Shown: positions 1-35,909 of the stretch, one piece after another
How the letters are laid out: each line of letters opens with the position of its first letter
How positions within the stretch are numbered: position 1 is the first letter of the stretch
Source: Blasia pusilla
Lineage: Eukaryota
Assembly (NCBI GenBank): GCA_050084515.1
Contig: CM114271.1
Span: forward strand, 22,940,001-23,004,000
Direction of reading: 5' to 3'
DNA length: 64,000 nt
Position numbers and translations under genes: made by a program
Notes under the pieces: generated by a model
What the model saw: only the letters and a program-made list of their open reading frames with translations
Databases searched by the model: none
What the model was told of the DNA's origin: nothing

Positions 1-3000
1 ACCCTGGAACCTACTGATAAGCCGAGTGGGGCGGACTGCCATCAATATTCGAAACGCTCTCTGCCAGTTCTCGTTACTAGTTTTCCTCAAGTTGAGTATG
101 TGTACAATAAGATTGAAAAGGTCGACGAAATTGTAGGGATCCCCCAAATATGCCTCAGGCGTAAACAGAAAGCCATAGGCAGCACTCTTGATTATCAGAT
201 CTATTGAAAATACCTGCAACCACCAATGGCCACCAATTCTAAGGTCTGCAGATCAAATTCGTAGGCACATCCTGCTCTTATCGGCTCAACAGTTCACATC
301 AGATAATCCCTTCTTTCAAAGGGGAGTTCAGTTTGGCTCAGTCCTTCACACGTACAGTAATGTATTCCATCTATATTAGCATTGGAGTGGTCAGAAAAAA
401 ATTAGTCCTCATCACGAGCCGTGAATCAAATGCCAATGATTATGCATAGGTAGTGCAGGCAGGCACACATGATCATGGGAAAAGGATTGGAATTCCTAAA
501 GTGACTGAATTTGGGACTATCGCCAAGTCTCTACTTAGAAGTTGTCAGTGAGTGTGCTCTTATGTGAGGTGGTTGGCATTCTCCATGAGTTTCTGCAGAT
601 GTGATGTCCAGTATGACCATTTTCCTTCATTTGAGTTTTATTTGAGTTTCTCTTCTCATTTCTAGAAGATCAGCACCTTCTTTGCTATTAGTATCACAAC
701 CTCTCCAGGTGATCTATGATTTCTTCAGACTACGACAACAACGGATGCGTTCAAATCTAAAAGCACGCGTGTCTATGAGAAAGGATGAAGAACCCCACCC
801 ATTTCTTGATACAAAGGGACACTCCATGGATGCCCAGTACACATGAGTCATTACAGGATGCAAAAGGGTGCACATCCAAGTAGGCAGACTTGAATTTTGG
901 TTCAAAGGTAGATTGAAGCTAAAGACAAGTTATGCTTCTTATGGTCACTGCACACTTGACTGCATTAGAAAGCATGGTCAGAGATCATTCAGAATCCCAG
1001 CCATTCCTTGAAACAAATGAACATTCTATGGATGTCCAGTACACAGGAGTCATTACAGGAGGGTGCGCACACATTCAAGGAGGCAGGCTTGAATTTTGGT
1101 TCAAAGGCAGATTGGAGTGAAAGGACAAGCTACACTGCTTATGGTCATTCCAAACTTGACTGTATTGGAAAGCATGGTCAGAGATGGCCCTCCATCAACT
1201 CATACAAAAGGCCCGAAGGTAAACGTCTGTGGACAGCGCATGCGCCTTCACCAGAATTCTACAGGTATTGCACGCCTGTAAATATTTTCATGATAGAAGG
1301 TCAGCACAAAGTACAGAACCGGTTAGAAATTCAGTTTTTGTGCCTTCCCTGAGACTGGAATCTGCAAGAAGTTTTCGAGTAAAGATGAAAAGTATGGACC
1401 AACTGACCGGTAGTGTGATGTCTGGTTCAGAGCGGGTGCAGCTGATTGAAGGGCTATTCAAACAGATGATGCTACAAACTGGTTAAAAGTATTGGCAATC
1501 ATAAGCTCCATGGCTTCCCTTGTGATGTAAAATGGTCAAGGCGGATGTGGTCGAGGCTTACATGCCAGGGAATGTGTTCGCAGTGGATCCAAAGATTCAG
1601 GAATACTCACAGCTAGTACAATGTAGTCCAATATCGGCAAGAATGGTGTCCCATATAGGATCAAAGGCACTCCAGTTGTACCTGTCTCAATAACAACGAA
1701 TATACTAACAGCTGCAATAAAAATCTGCCACCATTGATACCAGATGTTATCAATCACCCTGTTGCAGAAGGCTCGAACTTTGCTGCCAGGGTTGAAAAGG
1801 AATAGAGACCTTGGAGACATATACCATGGTACAACTTTCTCACCAGAACCTTCTATGCCCTCATAGTCAGAGAGGACGAACGAGGTGCGAACCTTCTTTC
1901 TACTTGGAGTTCTGCCATAAGGATCTTGAACTGGGTCAAGTTTAGACTCTTCCTTATTAGACTGCTTTGCCAGTTTAGCAACCATGGCTTGCTCATCTAC
2001 AACTGCTAAGAGTGCAGCTTGGAGTGCTGTTCTGTTTGCACCATCAGTAGTGGCGAAATTTGATTCATTGAAACCAGTTCTTAAGATGACTTTGTCAGAT
2101 AGTTGGCTGGGTCTCCGACGCATCGGGGAGTTCACAGTGGTTGAAGTCATTAGACCTATGGCGTTAAGAGCTCCTGTGCTGCTTCGTCGAAGAATTCTTG
2201 CCTTTGTCTTATCACTCTCTGCAGTGGAGCCTGGTATGTCAACTGTGGTGAATGGAAGTCTCCTTGAAGAGTTTGCTTCAATAGTCGGCAGAGCTGATCG
2301 TGACCTCTTTGGAAGTCTATCTTCCACAACCGGTTCTGGTGATTGTGCAGGAACCATCCTCACGAAGCCAGTGTCCGGTTGTAGGACAGGAAACAGCGAC
2401 ATACGTGACACTCTCATGGTACTCATTCTCCGCCTCATATCTGTGATCCCTCTTTGTGCTCCTTCCACTGCACCAACAAGCCAGTCTGAACTTCTCGTAC
2501 TTGAAACATGGTGAAGATGCTTTGTATGCAACCACTTAAGGTGTTCTCTCTGTAGAAGCACAGCCACCATATATATCAGTCACATTTGTTGGAAAACAGG
2601 ACTGCATGGCAAGCATTGTAGCCACCATAAATGCTCCTGAACAAAGCCTACCAAGAATAGTTGGCTAAATAGCACTGTATTTTCTACCAAAAATTTGGGA
2701 AGGACCAAGTTATAGACTAGAACTGAACACAACACTACAGAACTTCTTACCTTCTGAATGTGCTTCTTTTGGTTGTCTGTGAGCTCAGTTTCCTCCAGGA
2801 TTGTGGCAATAATGAGGTTGAGGATCACATAAGCGGTTATCATAAAGTAAAGTACATACAAGAATGGTGCAACCCACCTAACACATCGGAACCACTCAGT
2901 TTCATTAAGACGATGGCACTGAAATTTCTGCTCATCACAAACAGTATGCGCCTTGGCTCACAGATTTCTTTCAAGGAGGATTCAAAAGCTAAAGCAGGTA

Positions 3001-6000
3001 AGCCATCCAGCTGTGATGATGCTAGAAGATACACGGTCTTGCCATTGGCTAGGTTAATTTTACCTGAAGCTGTGTAACTATGCAGCTATGGTTCTCAACA
3101 CTCTCATTCATACTTTCCTAACCCTCACCGTTTTATAAGTCGAACATTGAATAACTACCTCAAGAACGGTGAACAGAAACACTTCAAAAAAACGTTTTGA
3201 TAAACAATCTCAAGTAATCCTATCCTTTCATTTGAAAAAGTGGGCACGCCTTGGACTGAGGCACCCTGAAATACCATGTTTGAACTTCTTTTAGTCAGGG
3301 AACTGTGTGCCTTCATAATGGAAGTCCTGGTGCAGATCAGTAGGTAATTGACCTCGCTTAAGGGTATACCCCTGAGAGAAAAGTCACTCTGGTCATGCAT
3401 TACAGAGAACTTGGTTGACAACTTATATATCTGAGTAAGGGGACGATTATTTAGCAGCATAGGGAAGAAGACCTTAGCCATACATGTGAAACCAGGCACA
3501 ATATGTGTTATAGAAACTTTTTCTTCAATCTGCTCAGTGAGAGGGGTACTTTCTTACTTGGATGATTGGCTAGTTGTTGTGTCACACCCTAATGTCTCTA
3601 TTGCCCACTTGTCAGTGTGAAATTTCAGCTCACCTGAAATATTTAAAGGCATATCCTAAGTAATCGAACTTCCAACGCTGTGAAATAGGGATGCTCATAC
3701 CTATTTTTCACTCCTGGACGCATAGAATTCCACATTTCATTAGGCCAGCTTTCGGCTGTTGTAACAGAGAACCAGGTTATCATTGCTTGTATAAATGTAT
3801 CATAGTTGGCACGAGGGTAGCCCTCTTCGAAGTTGTTGAACTGACCACCCCACAGCTCCATACTGATGACTGAAAATACAAGAATTATAAGCAGAAGAAA
3901 GAAGAACACACTCGCCATAGCTCCTGTACTTCTGAGAATTGCTGCCTGTGCAAAGAAGTGAACGGCTTCAGCTACATCTCCAGATTCTGCTTCATAAACC
4001 ATCACTTATTTTTGTACAAAAGAAATAGCTTTGTATTGTGTTCCAATTGTGTGAAGTACAACATCAACTCCATCTTGTAAAGATATTCTAAGCACTGCGA
4101 GGTAAGAAGTGGTGAGGTCTAGTGTAAAGGCACCCTAAGGATCAGCTGTTAGCATGCAGGAAAGTAAAACTGGAAAACTGTGAAGAGATAGTTGAGATGA
4201 GACGTGCCAGTATTGATCCACTTTCTTCTTCATCATGTCTCTTCTTTTGGTAAAACCAACGCAACATTCTGATAGGGGTAATGTTGGGGTATACATGTTG
4301 TGAGGCCACGGCACCAATGGATACACAAACCACTAATGCATCAATCAAGTTCATTCCTGGATAACCAAATGTAGCCATTAGCCAAAAGCTGACCTGCAAC
4401 TACACTGTTGAACATCCTTGAAAACTACTCTCCGACCACCACTTTCTTGGTAGGGAGTTAGAAAGAAAAGACCACTGCGAGAGTTTCCTTGCGAGTTCAC
4501 AGATGAATTCAAAATAGCTTCAGATTGGGAAAGTGTGGAAACTGTAAGGCTTTCTTTGATATCCACCACTAAAGAGATGTTCTATAGTAACGTGTATGGA
4601 GCAAAATGACAAGACTCTAGCAGTTGTTACTGGAAAGTTTGGACAAACTTCAGTGTCAAGAGGTTGGTCAGTCGCGACATCAAGCTGCTCACTACCATAG
4701 ACACTAACCTGATGTGGCAACAAAAATAGCATTAGGTCCTGTTCTCTGATGGTCTGAAGCCTTCAGACCTGATCTGACTTTTCACTCGGACACAATGCAA
4801 GCACTTCCACACATAGCTTGATTCAAGTGAACGTACAAGACTGGATCAGTTAAACCTGTTTAGATGTATTTGATGATTGTAAGAGCTGATAGGGGTGGTG
4901 TGATAGCTTGAGGGAATTCTTCAGTTTCATGGGGTTGGTCTTCACAACTAGGATTGAAGGCTCATTTGTGAAACAGAGGTGCAGATTAATGAAAACAAAG
5001 TGGGTAAATGATATTTACAAGTTATCTAGGTAGCCACAACCAACAACATAACTACGCAAGAGTTTCTCATAAACAAGTTTGTTTCATACTTTCATCTATA
5101 AAGTTAACAAGGCCAGCTGCTAAGAACCGCAAAATAAGCTCTGCAGCAAAAATGCATAACATGACCGCCTCCAATATTACTGTTCCTTGGTCAAGGGTCT
5201 TACTGAAGTAAGGATTCAAAAATTTATGTAGCATCTAATACAAGGGTCTGCCTTATGGAACAGCTTATTGCCTTTAAACAAATGCAACTTGGGGTTCTAC
5301 TGTTGCTATTGAGTCCCCACTTTCTTAGCATGCAATTTTTCTGATTCTTAACCAGTAAATGCGTAACAATCCCTTCAGAAAGTTGGCAGAAAAGAGTAGT
5401 ACTATATTCATTTATTTTGAAACATGATTCATCCTGAAAGGTAAAAGCTAAACCCATCTCTGCAATGATGGTGGTGTCTGTATCAGTGTGCCGGATGAGA
5501 GGTCCATTTGAATTCAGATTACACAATTTATTCCTCTACTAGACCAAGGTGTATTTGAAATAAATCTAGAGCTCATGGTGCAAGGATACAAATATTATCT
5601 CGGTGCCTGGAGCTCATGTTTGCTTTCAAGCTACAGAGACCTGCCATGTTGAGGCTGATGAAGAATAATTCAGCAAAGACAAAGATCTTGCTTTGCACTA
5701 TGAGCTGGCACTTCTTCGAGAGATTCTGAGCTGCATGTAGAGTTTGCATAGATATGTGACGAGAAATAGAGTGGCCAAAGCGAGCAGCACTCCGAGCGCC
5801 ACCTGAGAGATTCCGAGACAAGGTGCGAGAGAAGGTGCCAGACATGCTTTGGTCCAACGGTTGCTCATCATGTTCAGGCATGCCTTCACTGAGTTCAGCA
5901 GTGCCTGTAAGACCAAAGCTGCTGATACGTTTAAGGTAGGAGTTGGGATCATTCCAATCCACAGCTCTGGACATGGATCTCCTCAATCTTGTGCTCTGAC

Positions 6001-9000
6001 GTCTTAGAGTTTGAGAGAATTTTTGACTCAACTTCATAGTCCTTCGTCGCATGCGCTGCCTCCAAGTCAGCTTTGCATCATCACTCAAGATGACTTCCTT
6101 CAACAGCTTAGCCATCGTGATTGCATTCGCAAATGAGAATGCCTTGTCTCGTCGGTACTTTTTCAGGAGGATCTATACCCATGCCACAAGTGAGCAAAAA
6201 ATACAGCCCACTTGAAGCCTCTGGAAAAGCAGGAGTGATAGGAGTGCCTACACAGCTCTGTTTCACTCAGAATCCAATGGCTTGATCATATGAAGAACAA
6301 TTATATCCTGTCACCTTAACAGAAAGAGCAAGGAAGCACATCTACTGACTCCATTTGGAATCACTTTTTTTTCTTTTTCTTTTTTCGCTTTGCCTCTGAA
6401 CTCCAATTGCATCTCTTCTTTCCATCCCAGACCCTTCTTATGAAGCTGACCCTATGATTCAAAAACTGTCATTTCTATCTGGTTCTTTAATATTTAAGTC
6501 TCCTATGCACATTGACTTCCTTGTAGACAGAGAATCAAGCTGTTTTTCCAGTCTGATCATTAGAATGAAGATCCTGAATTGATGAATTTCTCAGTTGAAT
6601 CTACTGTGTACATTTCCTTTCAAGAATGATATACCTGATGTTCCTGTCTTACTCTAAGAAACACTCCACTTATTGCTGCAACAAAGATGTTCACCAAGAA
6701 GTAACTTCCGATAACCACCAGAATGATGTAGTATGCCTCTGCAAACAGAAGCAAAAAGACATCCAAACAAATAATCTTGTAACTTCCTGTTTGCAAGTAG
6801 ATACTCCTGAATGCCACACAAAAGCATCCTTGAAAATCCTTGGTGTTGGGTTCTAACAAGCATTACTACCTTGCTGTTCTCTCTGTTCCTTCATTCTGTC
6901 CCCAAATGCAAGAAATACACACCTGACGAGCCATCAGTATCTTTCATGTTGTACATTAAAAGAGACCATCCTTCAAACGAGAGAATCTGTAGAACCAAAA
7001 GAAGTTCAAGTGACTACTATTTCCAATGTAAAATCAGAATCACTTGTTGAACAAGGTAATAATCTCGTTGAAGGTGTTGCACAACTGCATTTGAATTAAC
7101 TTTTTCCTACTGGACATAAGAAAGGACCAGCCTACCAAGGCGGTAATCTGTCCAGTGATGCAAACAATAGATCAAAGGATTTCAGTAGGCCAGCAAAGGC
7201 ACCCTCTACAATGGTAGATGAGAACTGGGAACAGGAAATATGGGAATTTAACCTCTGGAATGGACATGAAAACACATAAACACAGAAGATGCTAGTTTTA
7301 GTTGAGCATACTTAATGCATAATAGAAATACTTTGGCCAATTACTATTGAAGTTAAGAGCCATACTTTTATCTCCAAAGATATGGTAGGATATCAGTACC
7401 TGTTAGCAAAGCTAGAAATTCAGGGCAGTGCAGATACCTTTCTACATCATAAATAGGGCTATGGTTTCAACCTGAAACAAAGTGAGAAATGCTGCTGCAT
7501 AGTTGTCAAAGCTGGTTGCTCCCCAATTTGGATTTCCCAAGTTCTGGAGAAGACAGACAATCCAGTTCAGAGAGCTCTGTTAATTCCTGGGAGGTACTTA
7601 CCTGCAGGAGGAATGAGAACGTTACTTTTCTTTGAGGAAAATAGTCTCATTGTTAGATTTTTTTAAAAGGTAGTTTTTGCTGCCAGCTGTCTGCTGAACC
7701 ACAATACTGTGACATTTCGTGACTCTAAACATGATTGTGAGGTTTCATCAACTGAGGAAATGAAGTTCTTGGGATCCATGACTACAAAGTGATTCGAACA
7801 GTCACTATTCTACAGCTTCTTGCATGAAACAATGGTAAGGCTCTTGGGCTCCACGACTATGAAGTAGTTCAAACAGTGACTATTCCACAGCTTCTTGCAT
7901 AAAATAATGTTGTTAGAAATGTCCTAAATTTCTATGCTGATCAAGTCCCCAGAAATACTGGAGAGTTTTGTTGCCAATTACTTTTCATTAGTACTTTCTC
8001 CCAATAACAACAAGATTCTATTTTGTTTTGTTTTACTTTTCACCTTATCGTATGGCTAAGGAAAGCGGGCTGTAATGTTGTCAAGATTGGACATGACCAC
8101 AGAAGTGAATGTTTTTCTTGATTTTCAGCAACCTACCTGTATTGATACCTAGCAATCCAGATACCCAGAGTCAACTGGGACCGATGGGCTTTTTCCGGTG
8201 ACTCACATGCACAGGTATCACTTTGTGAAATCCATGCTAGCCTAGTCACCTCAGAGTTTCAGATATTCCTTAATTTGATGGAACCTATTTTCAAGTTTGG
8301 AATCAAAGAATGACAATGTTTCTCAAATCTGAAGAACTCATGGAGATGGCCGTGGGGGGACAGAACTGAAGACCATAGAACCTGCTGCAGCAGCTATGCT
8401 TGTGTCTCAGCAAAACCTTAACAATCAATTGAGAATTTAGTGTGCAGGAAGATGACTCCACTCTCTGCTATAATTAATGATGTCTAATGACATCAGAGGC
8501 TTGGTCACATCAGCAAACCCATACTCACAGGACTCACAGGACTCCACAGCAAAATGGAGAGGCACAGAAGAATATAACTTTGTTTCATGTCTTGTACTTG
8601 CAGTGCTACAGCAGTCAGGACTTGAAAATGCTTATTGGGGTAAGGAATAGCCACAGCAAATTAGGCTCAGAGCAAGAGAGTTTGTTTGAGTTCCCTGAGT
8701 CTGGGAGAACAAGTTGAGTGGGAGCTTTAGCAGCTCCAGCATGGACCACCACTGGAGTAGGTATACATTCACAAGGGTGAGCACTCTGAGCACTACTCTC
8801 AATCCTATAAACATTCCAATGTACAACAGATTTCTTGAAGCTTCACCAGAACAAGTTCAGATGGAGCCACAGATTGGTCACAAAGAATCCAAGTCCAAGA
8901 TAACTCCAGAAGAAACAAGTGCTGGACCATGAAAATCTGAAACAATTTCTATGTGAGTGCAGAAAGATGATGTTCCACTCTAGGAGTCGCCTCACGGGGA

Positions 9001-12000
9001 ATCCAGAGAAGGAGAAGTTCCCTGATGCAATATTTAGTCCTCAAGAGAAGATCAATATTGATGAATCCAAAACCTATGCCAAAGCTCTCTCCAGGCAACA
9101 AGTAGTTCACTTGAAGAATGCAGTGGAATGAGGTTCAATGACACATGGTCACTCACCTCACCCCCACCAGGTAGAAGGGCTGTGGGATGTAATTGGATTT
9201 TCCAGATCACATACAAGCCAGACAAGGGGATTGAAAGGTATAAATCCAAATTGGTAGAAAAAGGCTACTAGCAGGTACATGACATGGGCTACACTCAGAC
9301 TTTCTCAACTGTAGTAAGAACGACTTCAATTCAACTTATGTCTGCTCTGGCAGCTCAGTATGATCTTGGAGTACGTCAGATGGATTAAAGACAGCATTTG
9401 TGAATGGTACTCGTAAGGAGGAAGTGTACATGGAGATGCCTGAGGGAGTGCCAGACCCTACTTGCCGAGATTCTAGACTGCACAGGTGCACTGATGGACT
9501 TGAACAGTCATCAAGACTGGTATCATGGGACAGATCAATTTGTTTTGTTCAAATACGACTTAGAAAATCTAATAAATGTGACCATTCTGAAGGATCGGGA
9601 ATTTTTTGTTCAATGGGCCCTTTCAGTAGATAACGTAATACTGATTAGCGATTGTATGGCATAGCTGAAATCTGTGTAGGACTCAAGACAGGAGGAGCTC
9701 AGAATGGCAGACCTAGGACAAATCCCTCATTTTCTTCAAATGGAATTATCTAGTAAAAGAAAGGAACGATAGAGAGGAGGGATGGGTAAGACTATCTCAG
9801 ACCAGGTTTGTTAATAATGCACTTTCAAGGTCTAAGAAATCTGACTGCAAACTTGTGGATGCACCAGTGGAGTTAGGACATAAGCTCTCTAAAAAGGATT
9901 TTCTTGGAATGAGGAAGAGAGGAGCTTCATGAGAAAAATACCTCATAAGAGTGCAGCTGGAAGTCTAATGTGGGCCACTGTTTGCACCAGGCCTGACATT
10001 TCTTTTGCGGTAAGCATGATTTCTGGATATATGGCTGAACAGGGTCCAGCTGATTGGGTTGCTGTGAAAAGGACTTCTAGAAATCTAAAGGGGACAGCAG
10101 ACTGGGGACTGGTATACAGTAGAATGGACAGTTAGAACCATTTTATGGGGACTGTGATACTAATTGGGGTAGTAGCCTGGATGATTGAATGTCCAGACAC
10201 CTAGTTTCTGTTTCTTGTTACGACAGGCAGCTGTATGCTGGGGAAGCAAGAAGCAGAAATCTGTTGTCTGAGGGTATGGCTTCAGCGAGAGTTCTCACAG
10301 AGGAAACTTGATCAGGAAATTTTCTAAGTGGGATAGGAGATCAGCAAGGTAAGACTGTAGTGTCTTTTGACCTTCCTAGAGAGAACCACATTCAGTGAGT
10401 GGACCAAGGACATACACATGAATATTAGGGAGATGGTGCAAAAGGGATTGATAGGGGTCGAAGATTATGCTACCAATGAAATGGTCTGAGACAGTTTTAA
10501 CAAAGGATTGACTAGAGAGAAACACATTATTCGTAGTGCTACTGTTAATGTAGGTAGTCACTTAGTGGGAGTATAAGAAATCAGCTAAATAACTTTTCTG
10601 ATCGCCAGTGACCAACCTCTACTGACACCTAGCAGTCAAGATACACCTAGTCAAATAGGATAGATAGCCTTCTCTGGTGATTCACATGCAACAGGTGTCA
10701 CTTGTCAGTGAGTAGGCTAGCATGGACGTGAATTGCATTCAGTTCATTAAGGACACAATTCTGCTCAAGCAAGGACAGAACTTAGAGGTCCTTGAATACA
10801 TACGTAAGCTACTCTGACTGGCTCTAAGTTGCAAATCACATTCCTGACAGATGCGAGTTGTGCTATTTCCTGCTCAATTCTGTCTGTTATATTGATCAGT
10901 CTAGTCCTCTGATTTCTTACAGTTTTAAGCTCAACAGATTCCAGGAACAAGAAACAATCCATTAAGCCAAGGATAAGACTAACAAAAAATTTCCAACAAG
11001 ACTGAAAAAGTGTATGGAGACAACCCCTCTAGGTAAGGATTCCAAGGCTGACTCTACATCCCTGCTGGGAGAACTCTAAGTTTCAGTGGACACAGGAATC
11101 CATCAACACCATAGAGTAGAACTTAGCATAACTCCCCTCCAAATTGTGCATTGGATGTCACACTTCCCTCTCACATAGATTTAGGAACTGACCGAACAAA
11201 GCTGTTCTTGCTCCGTTGGGCAGGTGTCACCAGTTGTCCTGCTGATTGTACAAAATTTCTCTGGGAACGAAATTTGCTCGTCTGACTGCCGTACACACCT
11301 GCAATGAACACGACCAGTCAGCTGGGAGGACATATACAGTGACTCCACAAATCTGAGACCAGAACCACAAAGGACAACAATCAGGATAAAAGCTGACATC
11401 AAGTTACTTTGGTAGGAATCGTAACCTTGAAACTGCCAACCACACTGAACACCAGTAGACTGATCTCTCTGTGCATGTGTTTAGGAAAGGTGAAAGTAGA
11501 CTTTTACCTCATGCGCAGATTGCCATTAAAGAAAATTACACCCACTAAGCCATAGAAAGATAAGATGATGAGAGTGAAAACGATGACAGTCTCCAATGCA
11601 ACCACGCTCTTCGTTATGGCATCCATAATAGCCTGTAGACAAACAGATCAGACACGCTACTGAATATAATGCTTTAATCAAGACATTTAAAATAAGGCAA
11701 TGAGAGACATACTCTGAAAATGCATCAGTGTTGCTGGGATCAGTTGGAGTGTTTACCTACCCACCCTCAATCTTGATTCGGACGACTTTGGTCCATTTGC
11801 TTGTGGGCATCCCCCTACAAATGACTAACTATCTAACCTGTATTTGAAGTGAGCACACTTCCCCACATCCTACAATCCAAGGCCCCAGGCTCCTGGTGCA
11901 CATTGATCCTAGTGTATAGTTGAATATGACAAAACGAAACCCAAGTAGATCAAATCTCGTGTGAAAGACGGCAATTTTACAGAATCCTCGCATATGGTAT

Positions 12001-15000
12001 AGGCAGCAAACCAGGAAAAAGAACCAGGGAAGGAACAATGAACATACGAGCACATTTCCGATGAAGGAAAAATGACGAAGAATCAGCAGTGCACGAAATA
12101 CTCGCAGGGTTGCGAGGCGAAGCCAGAACTCTTTCTTGAGCACAATTGTTCTTATAATGTGAACCCTGTGTGTTACATGACCCAATTACGATGTAAAAAG
12201 CACATTGTACACGCACATCTTGCATGACAACCATGGCAGTTTTGAATGGTAGAAAGCATCTAGTCTGGATAGGATTTCTGCATCCTCCTTTTCTGGCTAA
12301 CGATTGAAGCTTTTATACGCTTATCATAAATGGGATGAAGTTACAACTACTCCAAGGGGCTTGAGCTGTAGATGTACCATGAGTCTATGACAATAATCAA
12401 ATCAAGTGTGTTATAGCTGTTGCGAAGATATGTGTGAGGACCCCGGATGAAGCCAAGAGTAAGGATTTTGGAAATAGCTTCAAATCTGTGAGCATGTGTA
12501 AAAGACTCACGATCGTCAGACATTGAGTTAAATTACACCAACAAAAAATGTGTGATTTGGTAACAATGTGAAAGACCTCAGAACAGCCAATTGAGATTCA
12601 TTGACCAGCAATACACCCTCATTAGCTCACAGTTTCTACAGTTACAGCATAATTGAGTTAGCTATGGGAGACATTCAATCATCATAGGCATAAACTTCAA
12701 CATTTCTACCGAGGGGTTGGAGTATTGTTCACTCTACTGATTTACTTCTATTCCTAGCATTCCAATCCTCTTTGTTCCACACATATGGTTCTACTAAGTC
12801 ACTAGATTTGGTTGCGATTGAGGATACATAAGCAACAGAAAGAAGTAAATCTTCAGCATAAGTCATAAACTAATCTGAGGTTACGAAGTTGATTACTACA
12901 CAGAGGTTTACTAATTCCTTGAGGCTACTACCATACCATCCAACCTACACTGATTGATTGTAAATTAAGACGAAGGGAAGCCTCTTCTTCATACACATGC
13001 TGTCCATGTTTCTTGTACTTTCATGGCATTTGGACATTCTTCTTCTGATTTAGGACGACGTCCAACCAAGGGACAGTTACTCAGAAAAGTAATTCACTTC
13101 TACTCTTGCCCAAGGGTGAATAATATCTTGGCATGTAAGCTTCTTTGTGGATGCTAACAATCAGTCCGGTCTAGTAAATGTCAGTCAAAGTGGACTTCAC
13201 AGAAACCAACTATACAGAGGCATTCACATGTAGGGTTTCCACAATAAGGGACTCCTTACGTGTAGAAAGAAGTGAGAACAATATCTGCTACATCCAGCTG
13301 ACTTTTGGTTGGATGGAATGATGTCACGAATTTGTTTTCAGCCTTCAATATAAGAACGAAGATATGGCTTGCTATGACACCGAGCAGCAAGTACTCAGTC
13401 TTTCTGTTTGATGATTAAGGAAGGAGACTATACCACAACATAAATTGATATTCACGCCACTTGCAACAACATTCAAAGACAATTTTTTCTGCACGATATA
13501 GATTGATTATGTGAAATGTCCGAAGCAAAAAAGAAAAGCAAAAGCTTTCCACAAACAACAGCAATTGTGAGAAGGCCTCTGAAAATGTCTGGCGGATACT
13601 CATTGTACCAGAAGTTGAACAATGAAGCGCGAGTTTCACTCTCTATGCTTATAAATCCCAATGCGTGGCCTTCCATTGTTGCCCCAGTTCCTATGGGAGT
13701 ACTCAAGGCCTTCTTTTTCATAGCCTGTATCCACAATCAGCAGTCGCAATGTGTGACGTCTAGCAAGATGGACTACGCAACCCCTAGAATTTCAAACAAT
13801 CCCGGTTGCGAGGCTCTTAAGAAGCTGCATCCCCTACTTTTGCTTCAAGACTTTCTTTAAAAGAACTGCTACAACATGAACAACAACAATATGACCAGTC
13901 TGTCTGCTTTCCGTGAAGGAAAGTAATTCACAATGGCTTATCAGTTGTGTGGATCTGCAGAACTGAAAAGCGAAATCAGTGCACACGACAGGCAGATATT
14001 GTATGATAAAGAAAATGTAAGAGAGAGAAAATACATTTTGTCGCCTGACAAATTGATAAGCTTTCTTCCACCTATGCCTTGCTAGGGTCTCTGGTATTTT
14101 CATCTGTAGAGTTGGACCCGACAGATTGTCAGCAGATGAGGTGGAAGGTGCAGTAGAGGATGACGCGGCATTGCTTGCATAAGGAATGTCTCTGCCTAGC
14201 TGTGCTCGAATTTTATCTGCATAGTCAGGGTCTTGGCCTATATCGTCCTCCCACTGGGGCGCTTTGTTTGCATAACTAGGATCATCCTCCGGATCAAAAG
14301 TATCGTCTTTCCTGCACATGTGTAATTGCGAGAGTGAGTTACTGCACCCCATCACCGCCACAGTCATCGCCTCAAAGTCTGATTCCCAAGACCCTTGCAT
14401 TAACCTAAGAGCAGCGCCTGGACTACTCTGAGCATTCACCCTCACCGTAAGAGCTCTCAACTGGTGATGCTCCCCATGACACGCTTGACCAAAAATTTGT
14501 TCGTTCGTTCTTTTTTTCTTCATAGGTCTCTTTCAAGGTCCTACCCTCACGGTTGCTGACTTCACGACTACCAAGAACCAAGTTCAGATTGCCAACTTCG
14601 TAGATAGGTGTGAGAAGGCCAGGGAACACCACCTGGACCAGAAATCCTCTTAGGTCGTCTTTGTTCGGGTTCACACTGATCAATTCGCGCAAATGTTGCA
14701 AATCCAAGTCTAATGGTTCTTCTTTGGAACCCCGTGGACAATTAATCATTTCATTCATTCTCTATCTAGAAACAGACATTATGACAGATTCCCTGACAGA
14801 GTTGAGGAGCCTAGGGTATAGTCTCGGAAGACTGCAGTTGAATGCAAATCCTGCTTTTATAAGAGGAAGTGTAGCGCGCACTGAGCAGAATTGAAAGCAG
14901 CTGCAGCGCTCGTCATGACATTGGTAACAACTTCCTTGGCATGAGACGGGTGCAGCGACAAGGACATTCTCTTTGGCCGTGGCTCCGAGGGTGGTGGTAG

Positions 15001-15252
15001 CACCCCATGGATGGAAACAGAAACTGCGCCCTCTGATTCAACGGGCACAGAAACCGAAACCGAAACCGCTGATTCAGAGGGCACAACTACTGTCTCGATC
15101 AACTTGTTGGTGGCAATCGACTTCTTCGCCCCACGAAGCACCTCTTTCGCATGGTGCTTCAAATTTTCTGCCGACTCTCGCACAATTTCTCCAGCTTCTG
15201 CATCCGAAGACTCACCCACAGCTCTCTTTTCTTTTGCCTGCACCTGTGACAT
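1..15252 (-). CDS. Multi-domain (probably four-domain) voltage-gated cation channel alpha subunit, Cav/Nav superfamily; 3' part outside the window
   Basis: Frame-consistent exon chain: 14311-14035, 13724-13600, 13403-13260, 12485-12378, 12165-12048, 11632-11508, 11298-11193, 7543-7472, 6986-6923, 6738-6635, 6172-5607, 5202-5090, 4356-4208, 3945-3701, 2877-2751, 2549-1611, 213-<1. Upstream exons near 15252-14882, ~14760-14597 and 14460-14405 are less certain. Repeat I: FEAISKILTLGFIRGPHTYLRNSYNTLDLII, S4 LRLATLRVFRALLILRHF, SFDNYAAAFLTLFQILSFEGW, S6 YFLVNIFVAAI. Repeat II: ANYDTFIQAMITWFSVTTAESW, S6 ILNLIIATILE. Repeat III: DLIIKSAAYGFLFTPEAYLGDPYNFVD, S4 RAFRILMAVRPTRLISR. Confidence 0.9.
788..1185. 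repeat. Diverged tandem duplication, 2 x ~199 bp, intronic
   Basis: GAATTTTGGTTCAAAGG at ~892 and ~1091; GAAAGCATGGTCAGAGAT at ~969 and ~1168. Confidence 0.85.
7766..7912. repeat. Diverged tandem duplication, 2 x ~75 bp, intronic
   Basis: TCTTGGG...ACTATTC(T/C)ACAGCTTCTTGCAT occurs twice, 75 bp apart. Confidence 0.8.
8095..10707 (+). mobile_element. Degenerate, internally deleted Ty1/copia LTR retrotransposon in a channel intron, antisense to the host gene
   Basis: Broken RT and RNase H motifs (ERYKSKLVEKGY, KEEVYMEMPEG, GSLMWATVCTRPDISFAVS, WVAVKR..RNLKGT). PPT-like CTTAGTGGGAG at 10561-10571. Similar LTR-like segments at ~8130-8225 and ~10612-10707 share ACCTAGCA and GGTGA(C/T)TCACATGCA...CAGGT(A/G)TCACTT. 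Confidence 0.8.
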
Positions 15253-15444
15253 TTTCGCTCGCCCTTACCTCTAGCCCAGCAGACGACTATCAGAGGTCAA
15301 ATAGCTAAACCCCACTAGCACACGCGGCCCACTTCTCAAACCTACAATCTTGAACAGCACAACACCAAAAATCCGCCCGATAAGAAGCTTCCATACTACC
15401 GGGAGCAACGACTGTAACTTGTGATGGACTGCATCATCCTAAAC

Positions 15445-16400
15445 CCGCACTTTCCAATCCTGGTCCCATTGGACTTCCATGCCTTCTCTTTCCCCCGCCC
15501 TCCATGGGATCGCAGTCTGGGAAGCTCCACGGCTTCAACCTCTCCCTCTATCGCGAATCCCTGTTCCCAGATCTACAAACCCTCGTATCTCCTTTCTTCC
15601 ATCCTTCCTTCCCCAACCCATGCCTCCACGTCGGTCAGACCCCCAAGGAACCGGATTGAAGATGGCTGCAACTTGTGCACTACTACAACTTTATCTTGAG
15701 AAGCCTCGGTTTCGGTCATGTACTCGAGGACAGCTCTTCGGATTTCCTTGCGTCCATCCACCTCCCGGCCCATATCCCTGATTCCTTCAAAGCCTCAGGC
15801 ACCGCATTCTGGGAAACTCCATAGCCTCAGTCTCTCCAGTTACAAAATCTCTGAAATCTACAAGTCCTCGCATTTCCTTGCATCCATCCACCTCCCTGAA
15901 CTTGTCCTCAATTACTTCAATGAGGCCGGCACCGCATTCTGGAAAGCTCCATAGCTTCAACCTCTCTCTCCGTTTCTGGAATCTACAATCCCTCGCTATT
16001 CTCCCATTGCTATCCCATCATCTCGCACCCCATGTCTCCACGTCCTTCAAACCCCAGTCACCACATCCTGAAAATCTCGAGAGCTTCAACCTCTCCATCT
16101 TGTCTTGAATCTAAAATCCCTCGAATTCGACCCATCCATTATCTATTCATATCGCATCCCATGTCTCCACGTCCTTCAAACCCCAAAATCATCGCGTCCT
16201 GGAAAACTCCACATCTTCAATTTCTCCATCTATATGAAATTTACACACCCTCACTTTTCTCCCATTTCATCCATCCACCTCCCAACCCACCCCCGCCACC
16301 GCATTCTAAAAAGCTCTACGGCTTCAACCTCTCCGTACTTTCTTCCGGAACCGCAAACCCTCGCATTCCACTCATCTCCCACCCCCGTCGCCAGTCATTC
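15445..16400. repeat. Degenerate ~130-bp C/T-rich tandem array (about 6 recognisable units) upstream of the channel CDS
   Basis: Core resembling CCGCATTCTGGAAAGCTCCA.AGCTTCAACCTCTCC at ~15511, 15802, 15932, 16061, 16192 and 16299. Confidence 0.75.
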
Positions 16401-18427
16401 TCCATCCCTTCCACTCCACAGCGGTCAGTGTCGCTCAACAGCACCACAACAACTCGGGCTGTGAAGAAATTCCTTTCTGCGCGCTCCGCACTCCCGCATC
16501 TGCGACAGCGACTGCACCCTCAAGATCTTTGCTGCGCTCCATTAGGATTGGCACCAGCACATGGAAGAGCGGTCCGGAGTAGCCAACAAATACTTTATCT
16601 CGATCTCAGGCTGCGCAACGAACGAAATTGTAGGTCGTCAGCAGATGCTGAGACGAAGGAATGTGTAAATAAAACAATTAAAGAAAGAATGAAATGGATC
16701 GATGAGCGAGTGGATTGAGGAATGGATTGACGAAGTAGAGCGAAGATGTACGAATACATGTGTCGTTGGACAGTTACTTGATGAGCAGTACAGTACGACC
16801 CACGAAATTGAAGGCGGTGGTGCGTGCGCACTGATTCTGCGGAATCCAGCGATGGCGATTGCAGGGCTTCCAGTCCCCTCCCTCAACGGATCTGCCCCCG
16901 CCGCCGCTTTCACGAGCATCGGCAGCAGCAGGAGCGGTTGATTTTTCGTCTGCTTCAGCACAGACGTGCACCATAACCAGCGCCTGTAAATAGTTCAATC
17001 GTAAGGCCAATGGTCAAGCAGTTTTCCGGGATTCATTTTCATCGGCTAAAAAGGTTTTCGACCTAAACTCCGGTTGCTTTGCGGTCTATCCAATATTACA
17101 TGGAGGGTTTTTTATTATTATATCTTAAAAAAATTTATTAGTAAAGAATGTCCGAAAAGTTTTTAAGATGAATATATTACACACAAATTTTTTTAAAAAT
17201 TAAATTTTTTTTCAAATCAATAAGGCTCTCTCCCGTAATAATATAGATTATGATCTATATAGATCATAATAAAAAAACTCAAAATTATATTTGTTAGATA
17301 GAGTTAGAAGTGTTCTTCTCGGCACTTGAGGATAGAGTTAGAGGAAACCCTCATGAAGTGTCGAGGGGGACAATTTTAAGATCCTTCTATTGTTGACGCG
17401 TATCATTTTAGGGTAATTAAATTGAGGGAAAATATTTTGCCAGTAGAATGGACGGACGACACGATAAGTTAAAGTTCTCCCTTAATTTGACACATGTGCA
17501 TCTTACGGGAAAATATTAGTATAATAATATCAGCAATAGGGTCAGTAACCAACATCTCTCTATTCGACTCCCGTCTTTTGGGTTGTCTCTAGTTTTAACA
17601 CCTGACCACTCTGATAGTTTAGCTTCATCTCACTAAACTAGATGAGAAGGAAGGTTTCTTTCACCTTTGCAAGACACTAGCACGACTAGTTATCTTAGTT
17701 ATCAATATTCAATCCATGTGTGACTAAAAGATATAATTGTTAACAATTTCAGAATTTATTTTCCAGATGGGATGTTGAAGTGGGAAATTAAAAGGGTTCT
17801 TATTGATGTCAATTATTTTGAGATAAATCAAGTTATGAGGTCCAAATGATAAGAAGATTAGATAACATGAAGAAAAGATCGTGGGTATCTCATTCTAACC
17901 TTTCCTTATAAGAAGCAAGAAAGTCATTTTTTTCCATTAGGTTTGGGGTAGAGCATGTGTTGTAGTTGTGTGGTTGTGTGGTTGTCCAAGGGAGGAAAAA
18001 AAAAAAGGGGGAAGTTAGAAAAAAAATCTGATTATTTTAAAGTAGAAATATTGACTCCATGTTAAGCATTTGGCTAACATTCATTCCACCCAAAAAAAGG
18101 TTTTATGTTTTGTTATTTATGTATGCAGAAGAGGTATTTACAAGTGAAAAATTGTTCCAAACATCTCTCCTCTGACACTTGCTCGCCTTTAGCTAGTAAA
18201 ATAGTTCGCTTTCTGATCCAATAGTTCCATTAAAAATGACACTTGGAAACTTTAAGAGTTAATTATGAGACACAATTTAGACCCTTGGACATCATAATCT
18301 TACATTAGTCACTAATAATTAGACATTTCATCCATTTGAGTAGAACATACTAGTAAAGATTTACTAATGTAAATCATTGTCATGCAAATGATTAAATTAT
18401 CTTCCAAAATAAGAATAAAATTTCAAA

Positions 18428-21311: not shown

Positions 21312-24300
21312 ATGCTGTACATTGTGGGGCTGGGTTTGGGTGACGAGCGGGACATCACTCTGCGAGGCCTGGATGCTGTGAGGAAATGCGAGCGGGTGTA
21401 TCTGGAAGCTTACACGTCTCTGTTGGCATTGGGTCTGGGTGCTTCCGCCACCACCACTCTGGTAAGTGACTGACTCGCCACTGCCGTCGTTAGCTACTCG
21501 TCTTGCTTGCTGCGCTTGCAATCGGGGACCGGAGTTGTCGTTTCTCTGGAATTCGTGCTGCGATTCCCGATGTGCAGGTGATTCTCAGCGGCGCCATCGC
21601 TCTTGACTGACCGCCTCGCCGACCGAGCCTTGTGCCTGCAGGAGAAGCTCTATGGACGACCCGTGGTGGTGGCCGATCGTGAAATGGTGGAGCAGATGGC
21701 AGAGCGCATTTTGGAGGAAGCGCTAGTCAGTGATGTTGCGTTTCTTGTCGTGGGGGATCCTTTCGGGTCAGTACAGAGTCGAGTTCGTCTTTCTAGTCCA
21801 GCAGGAGCCTAAAATATAAGCCCATGGGATCTCTTCTATGTGTGATAATTGCGTCGCACTCGAGAGGCACCTTCACATCCAGATTACGAGCATTTCTGCT
21901 TCGGGTGAAGAGTTCATTGGAAGGAAGTACCATGTGAGAGGACGGAGACTCTCATACGGTGTGAATGCACACCGCACAGAGTGTCGGTGCGGACCTTCCC
22001 AGTGCCAATCAAGAAGCTCTTTACAACTCTATCTACCCTGCCTGACTGGGATCCCCAGCACACGTTACTTACCAGTGGAGCAGCTTTTGGCAGTGAGTCT
22101 AGGTTACCATATGTGTTAAAACAGTTTTGGTGTTACCAGCTTAGCAATGTAAGCAGTGGATTTGGCTGTTTGTGCTCTGAATTTTGCACAGATGACCAGG
22201 TTGTGACTAGAGGTTCCGTCCTCATCATTACTCAATATGCAGGACTTTAGTTGTGTTCCCATCGTGCCTTTTTGAGGTTCAAGAGGATTGCCCCTGTCCT
22301 GAACTTGAACTTAAGCTGGGCTCCCAAACAAGCCTTCCTCTCAAATAGTTTCTCAGTTCTGCTTGTTCACGATATGCAGTTGAGAGGCACATGATTTTAA
22401 GGGTTGAGCACACTTGTAGATTTGACCATGCCGGTGATGATTATTGCTTCGGTTACTGAGCTCACCCTCTTATCACTCGTTTCCACAGAGCGACGACACA
22501 CTCAGATCTGCTGGTTCGAGCCAAATCAATAGGAGTGAAGGTGGAAGTAATTCACAATGCTTCTGTGATGAATGCAGTAGGGGCTTGTGGCTTGCAACTT
22601 TACCGGTTTGGTGAGGCAATATCCATCCCTTTCTTCACAGAGACATGGAGGCCTGACAGTTTTTATGATAAGATCAAGTCAAATCGCTCCATGGGCCTGC
22701 ACACGTTGTGCCTTCTCGGTAATGTCCCTCTTCTCTTCCCGTGGTTGTTCTTGAATTTTAGTGAATATCTTTCCACTCTGCAGACTGGGAGATCTTTCTG
22801 TTGAGATGGGAGTGATGCATCGGTGAGTTTGGAGATGACAAAAGAATCACTCTGAACGTCTTGCATTCAATATCAGAGAAGGTTTCCCCTCTCCCTGTTA
22901 TACAGCTGCTTACAGCCTACTTCTATTGGACTCTTTGATCCTCCGGTCCCTTCCTCCAGCCTCCCTCTCTCCCTCCGTCCCTGCACCTCGATCGGTAGCC
23001 TTTTCTCTCATGTCAATTTGCGGAGGGATATTACAGAATAGGGTGCCATGACCTGTTGGGAGAAATCTTTTTCGGTGAAACCTGGCAGATGTGGTACAAC
23101 GTGCAGGTGATGGGGCACTGGGCCATTTGAAAAAAACTTACTTCACATGTGCTTGGGATTAGAGCCGTTACTTGGACAACATTTGCAGTGAATGTCCAGT
23201 GAAGCGCTCTGGTTTCATTAAATGAAATCAAGAGGAGCTTACTTTCCAACAATGCAGGAGGCTATGGAAGATGAACCACGAAGAGACCTCTCACATTATC
23301 TTGGACTTGACTTGGAGTCAGCAGCTCGAGTAAACAGCTTTGGTGGGAAGCTGTCCAATAGACTTCATTCCCAAACCTTCTTTCAGGAAATAATAACGGA
23401 GCCAGTGATGGGTCAGGGGCACAATTATGAAAGTGAAGCACTGCTGTCCAGGTTGTGTTGATGAGAAGAAAATAACTTAGATGAGAAAGCTCCCTGAAGG
23501 GGAAGTTTAGTCGGTCAAGAGGTTGTGTGTCCTGTGGATAGAATCTCTTACATTTCTTCGTCCTATCGTAACAGAGATGCAATTTATCAAACCTTGCTAT
23601 ATCAGATAGCTGGTCTTTCAAACATATAACATGGTATCTGGATACTGACTAATGTATTGATGGTGTTTCTGCATTACGCTCACAGTTTGACTTCTTATCC
23701 ACGCACGAAGAATTAGATTTGCACGATGTGGAGATTGTTACACCAATGACATGGGGCGCATTTGTGGTTGTGGACCTACCAGACATTCGAGTGAAGGAAC
23801 CCTCCGTCGAAGCTTTGTGTAGGTGAGAAACTGAAGTTCACTGAAAAGATATTGTGGTATCTGCTCAGCACAACCCACTGCTTTCATTGTAAGTTCCTTC
23901 GAGGAGCATGTTCATGGTGCTTGCTTGGTGATGGAGTATTTGCACATGTCCCCTTCTGTTTTCTTTCGCGAAGTACATTTAGCTTCATGGGACACTGTTA
24001 AATTCTATTGTTGTCATGTTTCAAGTCCTGCATGATGTGCTCTACGCAAGTGCTGGAGTCATGGTAATCTCAAAGTGCCATGGTGCGCTGGAGAATGATT
24101 ATTTTGTTCTGTACTTATCTTACACTCAATCCTGAAACCGAGTTCTTTTCTCAAGGTGTTTGACGATCGCATCATAATATGGGATGGCAAACAGAGAAAA
24201 GTCAACAACCTAAGTGTTCCCTTGACAATTATAAATCGCAGTGTTGAGTCAAATTAGAGGCTGGGGTGAAAATAAAATTGAAATTAAGCTGTGAATAAAA

Positions 24301-28100: not shown

Positions 28101-28748
28101 ACTTCTTACTTACTGCATTTGCAACTTTTGTTCTCGTAGTTGCCATCTTTGCAACAGGGCTAAATATTTCCTCATAATCGATGTCATATTGTTGTGCATA
28201 GCCCTTAAACACCAATCTCGCTTTGTATCTGTTAATTGTACCATCTTGATTGCGCTTGATTTTGTAAACTCATTTGCAACTTATAATTTCCTTACCAAAA
28301 GGTATATCAAGCAGCTCCCATATTTGTTGATGTCTTAATGCTCTTCCTCCATAACTTCAATCCATTCGACTTTACTTGCAGCTTCTTCAAAACAACTCGG
28401 CGCCTGTTCTTGAAGGGTAGTCATTATATATGCATGATGTGTCGCAAGGAAATTTTCATTTATGAATCTATGAACTTGATGTGTACTCTACTTGATCTAT
28501 AAAGTTGTTGTTCAGAGGTAGATGCTTCTAACACTTGACTCGAGCTCTCACTAATGTCAATAGACTGCATACCTACTCTTCTCGTCCATGGACTCACATA
28601 TTTAACTGATGAATCTATGACCTCTCCTAATCCTACACTAGTACTTAGGGAAGTTGGAGATAATGTCTGTTGGTTTACAATCACATTCTCCTCCTCAACA
28701 GGCGAGTTAAGAGGTGGAATAGGCTCAGATGGAGCATACCATGACTTT

Positions 28749-34700: not shown

Positions 34701-35909
34701 AATCGCATCAAAGATCTCCTCAGGGGTCGGCATGGCACACCTATCGGACTTCGTCTGCCGATTGATAGGTCGGTAATCTCCACACATTCGCCTATCCGTC
34801 TAGTTGCCATGCACATCCTTCTTGGCGGGCATGACAGTGGCAGATGCATACTCTCCATGCGACATCTCCACTAGTCCTGCTCCAACCAAGTCCTGGCTCC
34901 TACTTTGAATCAGAGCCGTCTCCATGTCACTGTACCTCTAGGCTCGTTAGAAGATCAACGTATCACTCGACAACTCAATGCGGATCCCTGGACCCTTCAT
35001 CGTACCCAAATCATGCATACTAAATGCAAACAACTCCTATAACTCCTGAGGAACTGGTGTATCCGGCGCCGCTCTCCTCCTGTCAACTTAGGGCCCATAT
35101 CTGGCTCCCAAGTCTCCATCGTATCTACGGTAGGACTCTCCTGCGGGGGTGTCGGTGGTTGCTATGGTGCAACCCCATCTCGAACAATAGAACTCTCATC
35201 TCAACAAACTAAATGGTGCTCTCGAGAGCACCAGCATGGGGCAAACCGCCCCCATACTCAATCCCTATCAAAAATTGAGCAGCGCTTCCGCGCGCTACTC
35301 TTCCACACAAAAAAATCAGCAAGGAAACATCACAAGTAAGCGACTGTTGCTGTGATGAGCACTCCCATGAACCGTTGAACAAGGAATACGATCCCCAACC
35401 TACAAAACCACCGAGTGACCAACGAGCTCCCCATTAAGCTCTCTCACTCACTCATTCTCTCTTTGTAAAATAAGATCTAATCTCTCTCACAACACCATAG
35501 TTCTCACATGTGTGCACTCTCACATGTCTCTCTCAATGTCAACCCAAACCCACTCTCCTAATGAGAGGCTTGGGTTACACACACAAGGCAACCAAGACCA
35601 TAGCTCCGCCGCCTCATGCCAAAAGGTTCAACAAAGAGAGAATGAGCTCTCAAGCTCTCTCTCCTTGAGATATACCCCTCCCCTCTTCCAAGCTCTCTCC
35701 GTGGTAACCTATGCTCCCAAGTCGCCTCCTTGGCTCTTGACCTGATGTAGGAGGTCAATAGAAAGTCGATAATATACTCAAAATGGTACTTACCTAAAAT
35801 AGTAAGTTCCTCAATATGGCTCCAAATGAGCCGAAACGAAGGGAAAACTTGCTCTCTTAGGTTTTCCAAGGCCTCAACAAGTCATCCTCAACCTATTGAG
35901 CATGTCCTC
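28749..35909 (-). mobile_element. Ty3/gypsy retrotransposon (RT-RNaseH-DDE integrase-PHD finger) with split-direct-repeat ends; gag and protease deleted
   Basis: RT MCGDYRPIN...LPFGLKNAP...YIDDI and RNase H VAYASR...YEGECLA (34787-33612). Integrase HEEFGHFG...SLDFAGP...VEHFSKW (33299-32826). C-terminal PHD (~32240-32100). Repeats: X1 35909-35464 (5'-truncated), G-run 31928-31916, Y1 31915-31790, X2 31787-31688 plus 29296-28874, Y2 28873-28749. Confidence 0.9.
29297..31687 (+). mobile_element. Non-autonomous copy of the same gypsy family, inserted in opposite orientation into repeat X2 of the first copy
   Basis: Starts TGTCACGTC and ends CGTACGACA. X at 29297-29759; internal leader 29760-30020 homologous to 35463-35212; Y at 31558-31687. 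No RT or integrase. Confidence 0.85.

Follow-up and report, generated by a model that had tools for sequence, protein, structure and literature searches.

The stretch of DNA analysed here (the window) comprises 64,000 nucleotides of Blasia pusilla contig CM114271.1 (GenBank assembly GCA_050084515.1, positions 22,940,001 to 23,004,000, forward strand). On its minus strand lies a gene for a channel resembling the four-repeat voltage-gated calcium channels (Cav) of animals, which runs from at least 14400, and perhaps from 15252, down to position 1. Counted from 14400, our model of this gene has 17 exons (3678 nucleotides, 1226 codons) with no stop codon and with GT..AG borders at all 16 introns. 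It takes in the N-terminus, the whole of repeats I and II, both linkers and segments S1-S4 of repeat III; the third repeat is incomplete in the window because the gene runs off at position 1. An earlier, sequence-only reading of the same DNA had described 17 frame-consistent exons without stops, encoding at least three repeats of six transmembrane segments. We too obtain a stop-free model of 17 exons, but as ours is counted from 14400 the two sets of exons must differ somewhere, and the three repeats become two complete ones and a third that is begun, with S1-S4 in the window. The locus is an intact-looking, transcribed nuclear gene of a land plant, which the gene tree places in the bryophyte branch that contains the liverworts.

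A chance origin of the channel frames is excluded by spliced transcripts (see below) and by the colinear tblastn matches of a 1721-residue Selaginella protein, whose residues 48-918 correspond to the window from 12481 down to 7. These matches indicate that the gene reads from right to left and exits at position 1 inside repeat III. The Ion_trans search that the sequence-only reading had suggested, carried out with Pfam on minus-strand stop-to-stop frames of 1-15264, finds matches in eight of the 16 pieces tested, two of which exceed the curated cut-off (1-252, 34.9 bits; 3643-4005, 53.4 bits). Exon borders were taken from splice joints in RNA records and from homology, with the remaining borders supplied by a splice search (3200 GT/AG combinations, scored against Selaginella) and, at the 5' end, by matches to Marchantia. 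The RNA evidence covers 1-15600 and comes from two contig sets that we guessed to be RNA (X1 and X3, with 25 and 18 aligned records) and two raw paired RNA-seq runs (X19 and X20, with 81 and 98). Most records are at least 99% identical to the window, and read depth is low, at ~0-5 per base from the 6-12% of each RNA run that was read. In the order in which they are transcribed, the exons are as follows.

14035..14400, minus strand: N-terminal cytoplasmic exon, with provisional upstream limit and start codon, placed by tblastn with the Marchantia, Selaginella and Diphasiastrum proteins; it carries the relatives' conserved motif DPEDDP...QWEDD plus HRWKKAY, and an X1 contig spans 14034-14338 and continues off the genome at 14034, where there is a donor GT
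13600..13724, minus strand: exon before repeat I S1, 61.5% identical to residues 192-230 of the Marchantia protein (P0158), with GT..AG borders and no read joint
13260..13403, minus strand: repeat I S1 and the start of S2, 54% identical to Marchantia, with a hydrophobic segment at residues 167-185; the downstream intron (13259-12486) has joints in X1, X3 and X19
12378..12485, minus strand: repeat I S2-S3, joints on both sides, Ion_trans match, 65.7% identical to Selaginella
12048..12165, minus strand: repeat I S3-S4, joints on both sides, S4 motif with four arginines or lysines
11508..11632, minus strand: repeat I S4-S5 linker and S5, joints on both sides, Ion_trans match
11193..11298, minus strand: repeat I extracellular turret with four cysteines, joints on both sides, 44-47% identical to the lycophyte proteins
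7472..7543, minus strand: repeat I pore helix, joints on both sides, including that of the 3649-nucleotide intron 11192-7544
6923..6986, minus strand: repeat I selectivity filter SFEGW, joints on both sides, its glutamate aligned on that of the animal Cav motif
6635..6738, minus strand: repeat I S6, joints on both sides, 64-73% identical to relatives
5590..6172, minus strand: I-II linker and repeat II S1, with a joint upstream and none at the donor (5590, picked from the 3200 splice combinations); it matches Marchantia at 49% identity (172 bits), and Calypogeia and Marchantia paleacea at 54-57%
5090..5179, minus strand: repeat II S2, found by homology, borders from the splice search, no read joint
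4204..4356, minus strand: repeat II S3 and a charge-poor S4, found by homology, donor ambiguous (4204, 4222 or 4171)
3701..3941, minus strand: repeat II S5 and pore loop with filter TAESW, Ion_trans match of 53.4 bits, acceptor ambiguous (3941, 3965 or 3971); the downstream intron (3700-2878) has a joint in X19
2751..2877, minus strand: repeat II S6, joints on both sides, 64-74% identical to relatives
1611..2549, minus strand: II-III linker, repeat III S1 and the start of S2, joints on both sides, 197 bits to Marchantia
1..213, minus strand: repeat III S2-S4, cut by the window edge, Ion_trans match of 34.9 bits; S4 has five arginines or lysines, and joint 211>1609 is seen in X19 and X20

Twelve splice joints were listed in the RNA records. 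Eleven have CT..AC ends, that is, GT..AG on the minus strand, and mark exact introns within a shift of 0-2; the twelfth is intron 12047-11633 once more, in a record that carries two synonymous differences. Spliced support for 11 of the 16 introns comes from cDNA-like contigs (X1, X3) together with raw reads (X19, X20), whilst the five introns 14034-13725, 13599-13404, 5589-5180, 5089-4357 and 4203-3942 have no read joint. Nearly all of the depth in X19 and X20 has the first mate on the plus strand, as expected of RNA from the minus strand. One X1 record, four X19 reads and four X20 reads run over a stretch end, and X19 depth is highest in the bin 1-520 and absent from the bin 15081-15600; the edge-crossing reads and this peak indicate that the transcript extends leftwards past the window. 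Reads and assembly differ at eight exonic sites, six of them synonymous and two nonsynonymous, a small sample that fits selection on the protein.

The gene's one long intron (7544-11192) contains a degenerate Ty1/copia fragment in the opposite orientation, with plus-strand frames at ~8400-10300, a 23-bit RVT_2 match at 9065-9271 and further stop-broken frames resembling reverse transcriptase. Some X20 reads pile up at 8841-9360, five of them starting at 8921, and probably come from other copies of the element.

Homology to the relatives begins near 14355, with the conserved acidic motif followed by HRWKKAY. Further upstream there is one candidate for the first coding frame:

14860..15252, minus strand: open frame of ~130 codons with an ATG at 15252, whose membership in the gene is uncertain

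Residues 13-76 of this frame weakly resemble residues 5-75 of the Marchantia protein (29.6% identity over ~64 residues, E 2e-4 in a search against five sequences). Read depth over the frame is ~0, and a search for splice donors within it found just three scoring at least 4/7, none of them in phase for a clean join to the next exon. A 255-letter loose end of an X3 contig, leaving the genome at 14642 after a match to 14560-14642, was considered as an upstream exon and rejected, its first 30 letters having no match in the window at up to three mismatches. Its sequence suggests a diverged copy of a dispersed repeat, resembling the sequence adjoining on the 5' side of the gene. At 15930-16185, immediately upstream of the channel's coding region, a 129-bp unit is repeated twice with 79% matches, embedded in a wider plus-strand open frame (15924-16718) that is rich in proline and serine and resembles further diverged copies.

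Hydrophobic segments and alignment give the layout of the encoded protein, in which the segments fit S1-S6 twice and then S1-S4:

residues 167-432: repeat I, S1-S6
~170 residues: I-II linker
residues 607-826: repeat II
~290 residues: II-III linker
residues 1118-1224: repeat III, S1-S4

The pore loops of repeats I and II each have an acidic residue at the filter, with a conserved tryptophan after it. In repeat I the filter SFEGW occupies model residues 391-395, and in repeat II TAESW lies at ~781-785; the filter residue is glutamate in both, and that of TAESW aligns with the repeat II filter glutamate of human Cav2.1 and with a filter glutamate of an oyster Cav. The voltage sensors are less uniform. 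The S4 of repeat III has five arginines or lysines, including the RP.R motif common to Cav, and the S4 of repeat I has four, one of them irregularly spaced, with a leucine where animal Cav carries a charge. In the S4 of repeat II (residues 694-709) only two arginines keep the register, and WFY and a cluster of lysine and arginine come after them. The same degenerate pattern occurs in Marchantia, Selaginella, Diphasiastrum and Ginkgo, which indicates a conserved trait of the clade rather than decay of the Blasia copy. Acidic counter-charges (glutamate or aspartate in S2, aspartate in S3) are present in all three repeats. In an alignment with the oyster Cav, neither the window nor any of the plant relatives has a GY..WI core in the I-II linker; this core is the motif that binds the beta subunit in animals (AID).

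Against the PDB, the repeat II pore exon finds repeat II of Cav2.1 first (79.7 bits), and all 19 of its matches are Cav or Nav chains. Much of what the sequence-only reading had said of the protein is upheld by these comparisons: it had placed glutamate in the filters SFEGW and TAESW, where we find it aligned on the filter glutamate of animal Cav, it had called the channel Cav/Nav-type, as the PDB matches of this exon and of the Marchantia orthologue (below) do, and it had taken a third repeat to exclude TPC1. The two-repeat TPC is indeed rejected, the third repeat being carried on the same spliced RNA: exon 1611-2549 spans the II-III linker and S1 of repeat III, and it is connected on either side by the joints 2549>2751 and 211>1609.

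Word-based searches with the repeat II pore exon found two proteins among 29 candidates, both of Selaginella moellendorffii and 57-60% identical; such searches overlooked even Marchantia polymorpha and their blanks carry little weight. An exhaustive HMMER search of 1.84 billion representatives returned 905 proteins at E<=0.001, of which 78 reach E<=1e-10. The first seven have scores of 94-117 bits; the oyster Cav comes next at 85 bits. Five of these seven and two lower matches are named, and belong to Diphasiastrum complanatum (KAJ7531395), Selaginella (several proteins), Ginkgo (Gb_09885, a fragment of 737 residues) and Marchantia polymorpha (Mp2g23520). The I-II linker exon adds Calypogeia fissa (57% and 54%) and Marchantia paleacea (54%), three matches among 1112 candidates. 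Over the whole model, identity is 48.5% (570/1176) to Marchantia, 40.6-41.9% to the lycophytes (Diphasiastrum, Selaginella A and B), 35% to the Ginkgo fragment and 23.8% to the oyster Cav.

A Pfam scan of five relatives shows four Ion_trans stretches in three of them (P0158, P0005 and P0002) and three and two in the two incomplete models; an IQ motif occurs in two of the five. Comparison of the third and fourth filters of the full-length relatives gives aspartate at both, such that the clade reads E-E-D-D. The Marchantia orthologue has 54 PDB matches, all of them to Cav, Nav or NALCN chains, with Cav1.1 at 317 bits, Nav at ~270, Cav3.1 at 241 and NALCN at 197. Three unnamed metagenome or Logan fragments (P0004, of 98 residues, and the short P0006 and P0013) are 59-70% identical to the pore exon of repeat II, two of them more so than any named relative; fragments of such high identity imply that more plants with this channel are present in environmental data. 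A look-up in the ESM Atlas returned generic Ion_trans clusters only.

Two trees were built, one with FastTree (MAFFT alignment of 87 rows, 1276 columns) and one with IQ-TREE (24 rows, 1373 columns, LG+G4), leaving out isoforms and short fragments (below 1250 residues in the 87-row tree, except for the Ginkgo fragment) and without named Cav3, Nav, NALCN, Cch1 or CAV2 sequences. The land-plant channels form a clade with IQ-TREE support of 100/100, and FastTree gives the same picture. Within it the window, both Marchantia species and Calypogeia group at 100/100 (their internal order is not fixed), the lycophytes form a branch at 97/99, and Ginkgo stands on a branch of its own. The sister group of the plant clade (100/100) consists of three unnamed environmental proteins, and among further proteins looked up on the sister side the only names obtained were Fabomonas, Lacrimia and Stentor. 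The proteins of Mesostigma and Chlorokybus lie outside the plant clade, as does the oyster Cav; starred branches stand between the oyster Cav clade and that of the plants, which does not lie within Cav1/2. Agreement of the gene tree with the plant tree indicates vertical descent, and by sequence the Blasia gene is orthologous to Marchantia Mp2g23520 and to the lycophyte and Ginkgo proteins.

A neighbouring gene on the plus strand also speaks of a plant. Its exon at 47777-48247 has 475 matches at E<=0.001 among 765 candidates; all named proteins among the 120 matches listed come from land plants, the best named ones listed being Riccia fluitans (84%), R. sorocarpa (82%) and Sphagnum (80%). The sequence-only reading had supposed a channel retained in a lineage with flagellated sperm and had made its case depend on transcripts and on a plant origin of the contig. 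Spliced, stranded RNA is now available for 11 of the 16 introns, the channel sits in an embryophyte clade of 100/100 support beside a gene typical of land plants (Riccia, 82-84%), and the named relatives all come from plants with swimming sperm, namely liverworts, lycophytes and Ginkgo.

Copia, gypsy and LINE remnants occupy much of the window. Beyond the channel gene, the features are as follows.

22460-22804, plus strand: frame resembling a diphthine-synthase exon, with no Pfam match at E<=0.001 in the pieces tested
27679-28269 and 36001-36459, minus strand: copia-type RVT_2 (185 bits) and GAG-pre-integrase, probably parts of one or two copia elements
32089-34799, minus strand: body of a gypsy-type retrotransposon with RVT_1, RNase H and integrase, and a PHD-like cysteine-rich tail frame at 32089-32703
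46400-48750, plus strand: the neighbouring gene, conserved in land plants and ~520 residues long in relatives; in some UniRef entries it bears the name 'inositol-1,4,5-trisphosphate 5-phosphatase', and it has no Pfam match at E<=0.001
52700-55911, minus strand: LINE-like element with (weak) endonuclease and RVT_1 frames
58400-63450, minus strand: frames resembling a sphingoid-base or diacylglycerol-kinase-like gene, with no Pfam match at E<=0.001 in the pieces tested

Taken together, these results lead us to a reading to which we assign a probability of roughly 0.7: that this gene encodes a complete four-repeat channel of Cav type with an E-E-D-D filter, which opens on depolarisation and lets in Ca2+. 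The four repeats and the filter of the complete protein are extrapolated from the full-length relatives. Opening on depolarisation would be driven by the charged S4 segments of repeats I, III and IV, that of repeat II being degenerate, and the channel would then admit Ca2+, with the IQ motif in the relatives' tail suggesting feedback through calmodulin. Judged from its distribution and from the algal channel CAV2, its most likely role would be Ca2+ entry controlling the flagellar beat of swimming sperm; a second possibility is depolarisation-activated Ca2+ entry in excitable cells of the thallus. Both the Ca2+ permeability and the role in sperm are things that we infer.

Several points tell against this reading. 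With two arginines in the S4 of repeat II and an irregular S4 in repeat I, voltage gating may be weak or atypical, and no electrophysiology for any member of the clade was found in the literature searched. S5-S6 of repeat III and the whole of repeat IV lie outside the window, and the E-E-D-D filter is known from relatives only. The link to swimming sperm rests on few taxa, whilst RNA depth is low and nothing in the RNA runs links expression to sperm. In the gene model itself, five introns are supported by homology and splice rules alone, the junction 4204/3941 has open alternatives (several score within 15 points of each other), and the 5' end is provisional, with the start either at 15252 or at about 14400.

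The alternative that fares best, although we consider it improbable, is a four-repeat cation channel of leak or store type, voltage-insensitive or weakly modulated by voltage in the manner of NALCN or fungal Cch1. It would account for the clade-wide degeneration of the repeat II S4 and for the leucine at a charge position of animal Cav in the S4 of repeat I, and it draws some support from the position of the plant clade, which is not inside that of animal Cav. The S4 of repeat III, however, keeps its five arginines or lysines, the acidic counter-charges of S2 and S3 are in place, and no filter of the relatives contains lysine. The structural matches point the same way: for the Marchantia orthologue, Cav1.1 gives 317 bits and NALCN 197, and no NALCN chain is found at E<=0.001 among the 19 PDB matches of the repeat II pore exon.

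Less probable by some way is a truncated or decaying gene, the part beyond the window being missing or broken and no working channel being made. That S5-S6 of repeat III and repeat IV lie beyond the window leaves room for this, as do the incomplete database models of Ginkgo and Diphasiastrum. A decaying gene is hard to reconcile, however, with 1226 open codons and canonical splice sites, with spliced, stranded transcripts whose reads continue past position 1, where depth peaks, or with the finding that six of the eight exonic differences are synonymous. That the contig is a non-plant contaminant, or the gene a horizontal acquisition, is very improbable indeed: the unnamed environmental proteins in the sister group might suggest it, but the gene tree, with branches for bryophytes, lycophytes and Ginkgo, matches the plant tree, there are 16 spliceosomal introns in the gene (one with a copia fragment), the gene's neighbour is conserved in land plants, and the runs, labelled as one organism, carry the locus at 99% identity or more in most reads.

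The existence of such a gene bears on a view that recurs in the literature. According to passages of the papers concerned, embryophytes are without four-repeat Cav/Nav genes (PMC5824947, 2018), four-repeat channels were lost from land plants (PMC6509283, 2019) and channels of 4 x 6 transmembrane segments were 'purged' by them (PMC6259924, 2018). Passages of PMC11085791 (2024) repeat the absence from land plants and report that flagellar CAV2 is required for a light response of Chlamydomonas, whilst PMC11617655 (2024) is among five papers whose passages state that land plants lack or lost these channels or that a depolarisation-activated Ca2+ channel is still to be found in plants. Passages of PMC12412391 mention Chloroplastida channels in several clades and name no land plant. 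The preprint on spermatogenesis (10.1101/2021.07.25.453666) contains no mention of a channel or of calcium. In the literature searched we found no paper describing this land-plant clade, no mention of Mp2g23520 or Mapoly0069s0001, and, among 20 papers listed, none with Marchantia together with Cav, Nav or NALCN. Dreyer (2021, in Trends Plant Sci) reportedly surveyed plant voltage-gated cation channels and may already mention the clade. What is new here is the recognition of a clade that reviews have overlooked and not a new kind of protein, the sequences of the relatives being already public under automatic names.

Alongside the Marchantia, Calypogeia, Selaginella, Diphasiastrum and Ginkgo proteins, the Blasia gene provides a spliced and transcribed example from a further plant, and the claimed absence from land plants fails for the non-flowering lineages. 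A broader proposal, which we advance tentatively and with less than even confidence, is that the four-repeat Cav-type channel never vanished entirely from land plants, and that one ancient clade with the E-E-D-D filter is the depolarisation-activated Ca2+ channel long sought in plants, steering sperm flagella as CAV2 does in Chlamydomonas. If so, a clade with a degenerate second voltage sensor would persist where sperm swim (liverworts, lycophytes, Ginkgo, Blasia), its loss in other seed plants would accompany the loss of motile sperm, and it might also supply the Ca2+ phase of action potentials in liverworts. The gene thus offers a concrete candidate for two questions, the Ca2+ control of the flagellar beat of plant sperm and the identity of the Ca2+ channel of liverwort action potentials, and as Marchantia can be transformed, both are directly testable.

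How, then, does the Blasia channel compare with those already known? The nearest protein is Marchantia Mp2g23520 (BBN03442 and isoforms, 1767-2039 residues), filed as 'Ion transport domain-containing protein'. The two are colinear over the whole window model and share conserved linkers, the same filter motifs in the first two repeats, a degenerate S4 in repeat II and a place in the same 100/100 subclade. They differ in the longer N-terminus of the Marchantia protein and by a deep species distance, and repeats III and IV with their aspartate filters are seen in Marchantia. Marchantia paleacea and Calypogeia fissa are represented by fragments only. Among lycophytes, Selaginella moellendorffii XP_024521493 with its paralogues and Diphasiastrum KAJ7531395 belong to the same clade and are 55-60% identical in the repeat II pore exon; complete Selaginella models show four Ion_trans repeats, filters that read E-E-D-D and, in the tail, an IQ motif. 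The lycophyte proteins nevertheless differ in overall identity (41-42%), in their shorter linkers and in the presence of several Selaginella paralogues, whose automatic NCBI names are contradictory (L-, T- or R-type calcium channel, or sodium channel alpha subunits).

Animal Cav1 and Cav2 (PDB 6jpa, 8x90) share with the Blasia channel the plan of four repeats of six transmembrane segments, glutamate in filters I and II, a tryptophan two residues past the filter residue, a cysteine-rich turret in repeat I and asparagines in S6, and give the best PDB scores. In contrast to them it is ~24% identical, lies outside the animal clade, has a degenerate repeat II S4 and lacks the beta-subunit motif, and the aspartates in filters III and IV of its relatives argue against the EEEE filter. 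The T-type Cav3 channels of animals have the filter E-E-D-D. In this the plant relatives are like Cav3, but the PDB scores are lower than for Cav1/2, both for the Marchantia orthologue (241 against 317 bits) and for the repeat II exon of the window (33-37 against 80 bits). The filters of NALCN and Cch1 contain lysine (EEKE or EKEE), and membership of that group is rejected, there being no lysine at filters I and II, nor at III and IV of the relatives, and the score on NALCN falling short of that on Cav1.1 as given above. As for Chlamydomonas reinhardtii CAV2, the likeness is one of description, and the streptophyte-alga proteins of Mesostigma and Chlorokybus stand outside the plant clade; like the Blasia channel as we read it, CAV2 is a four-repeat channel of the green lineage, and passages of PMC11085791 and PMC6509283 tie it to flagellar motility.

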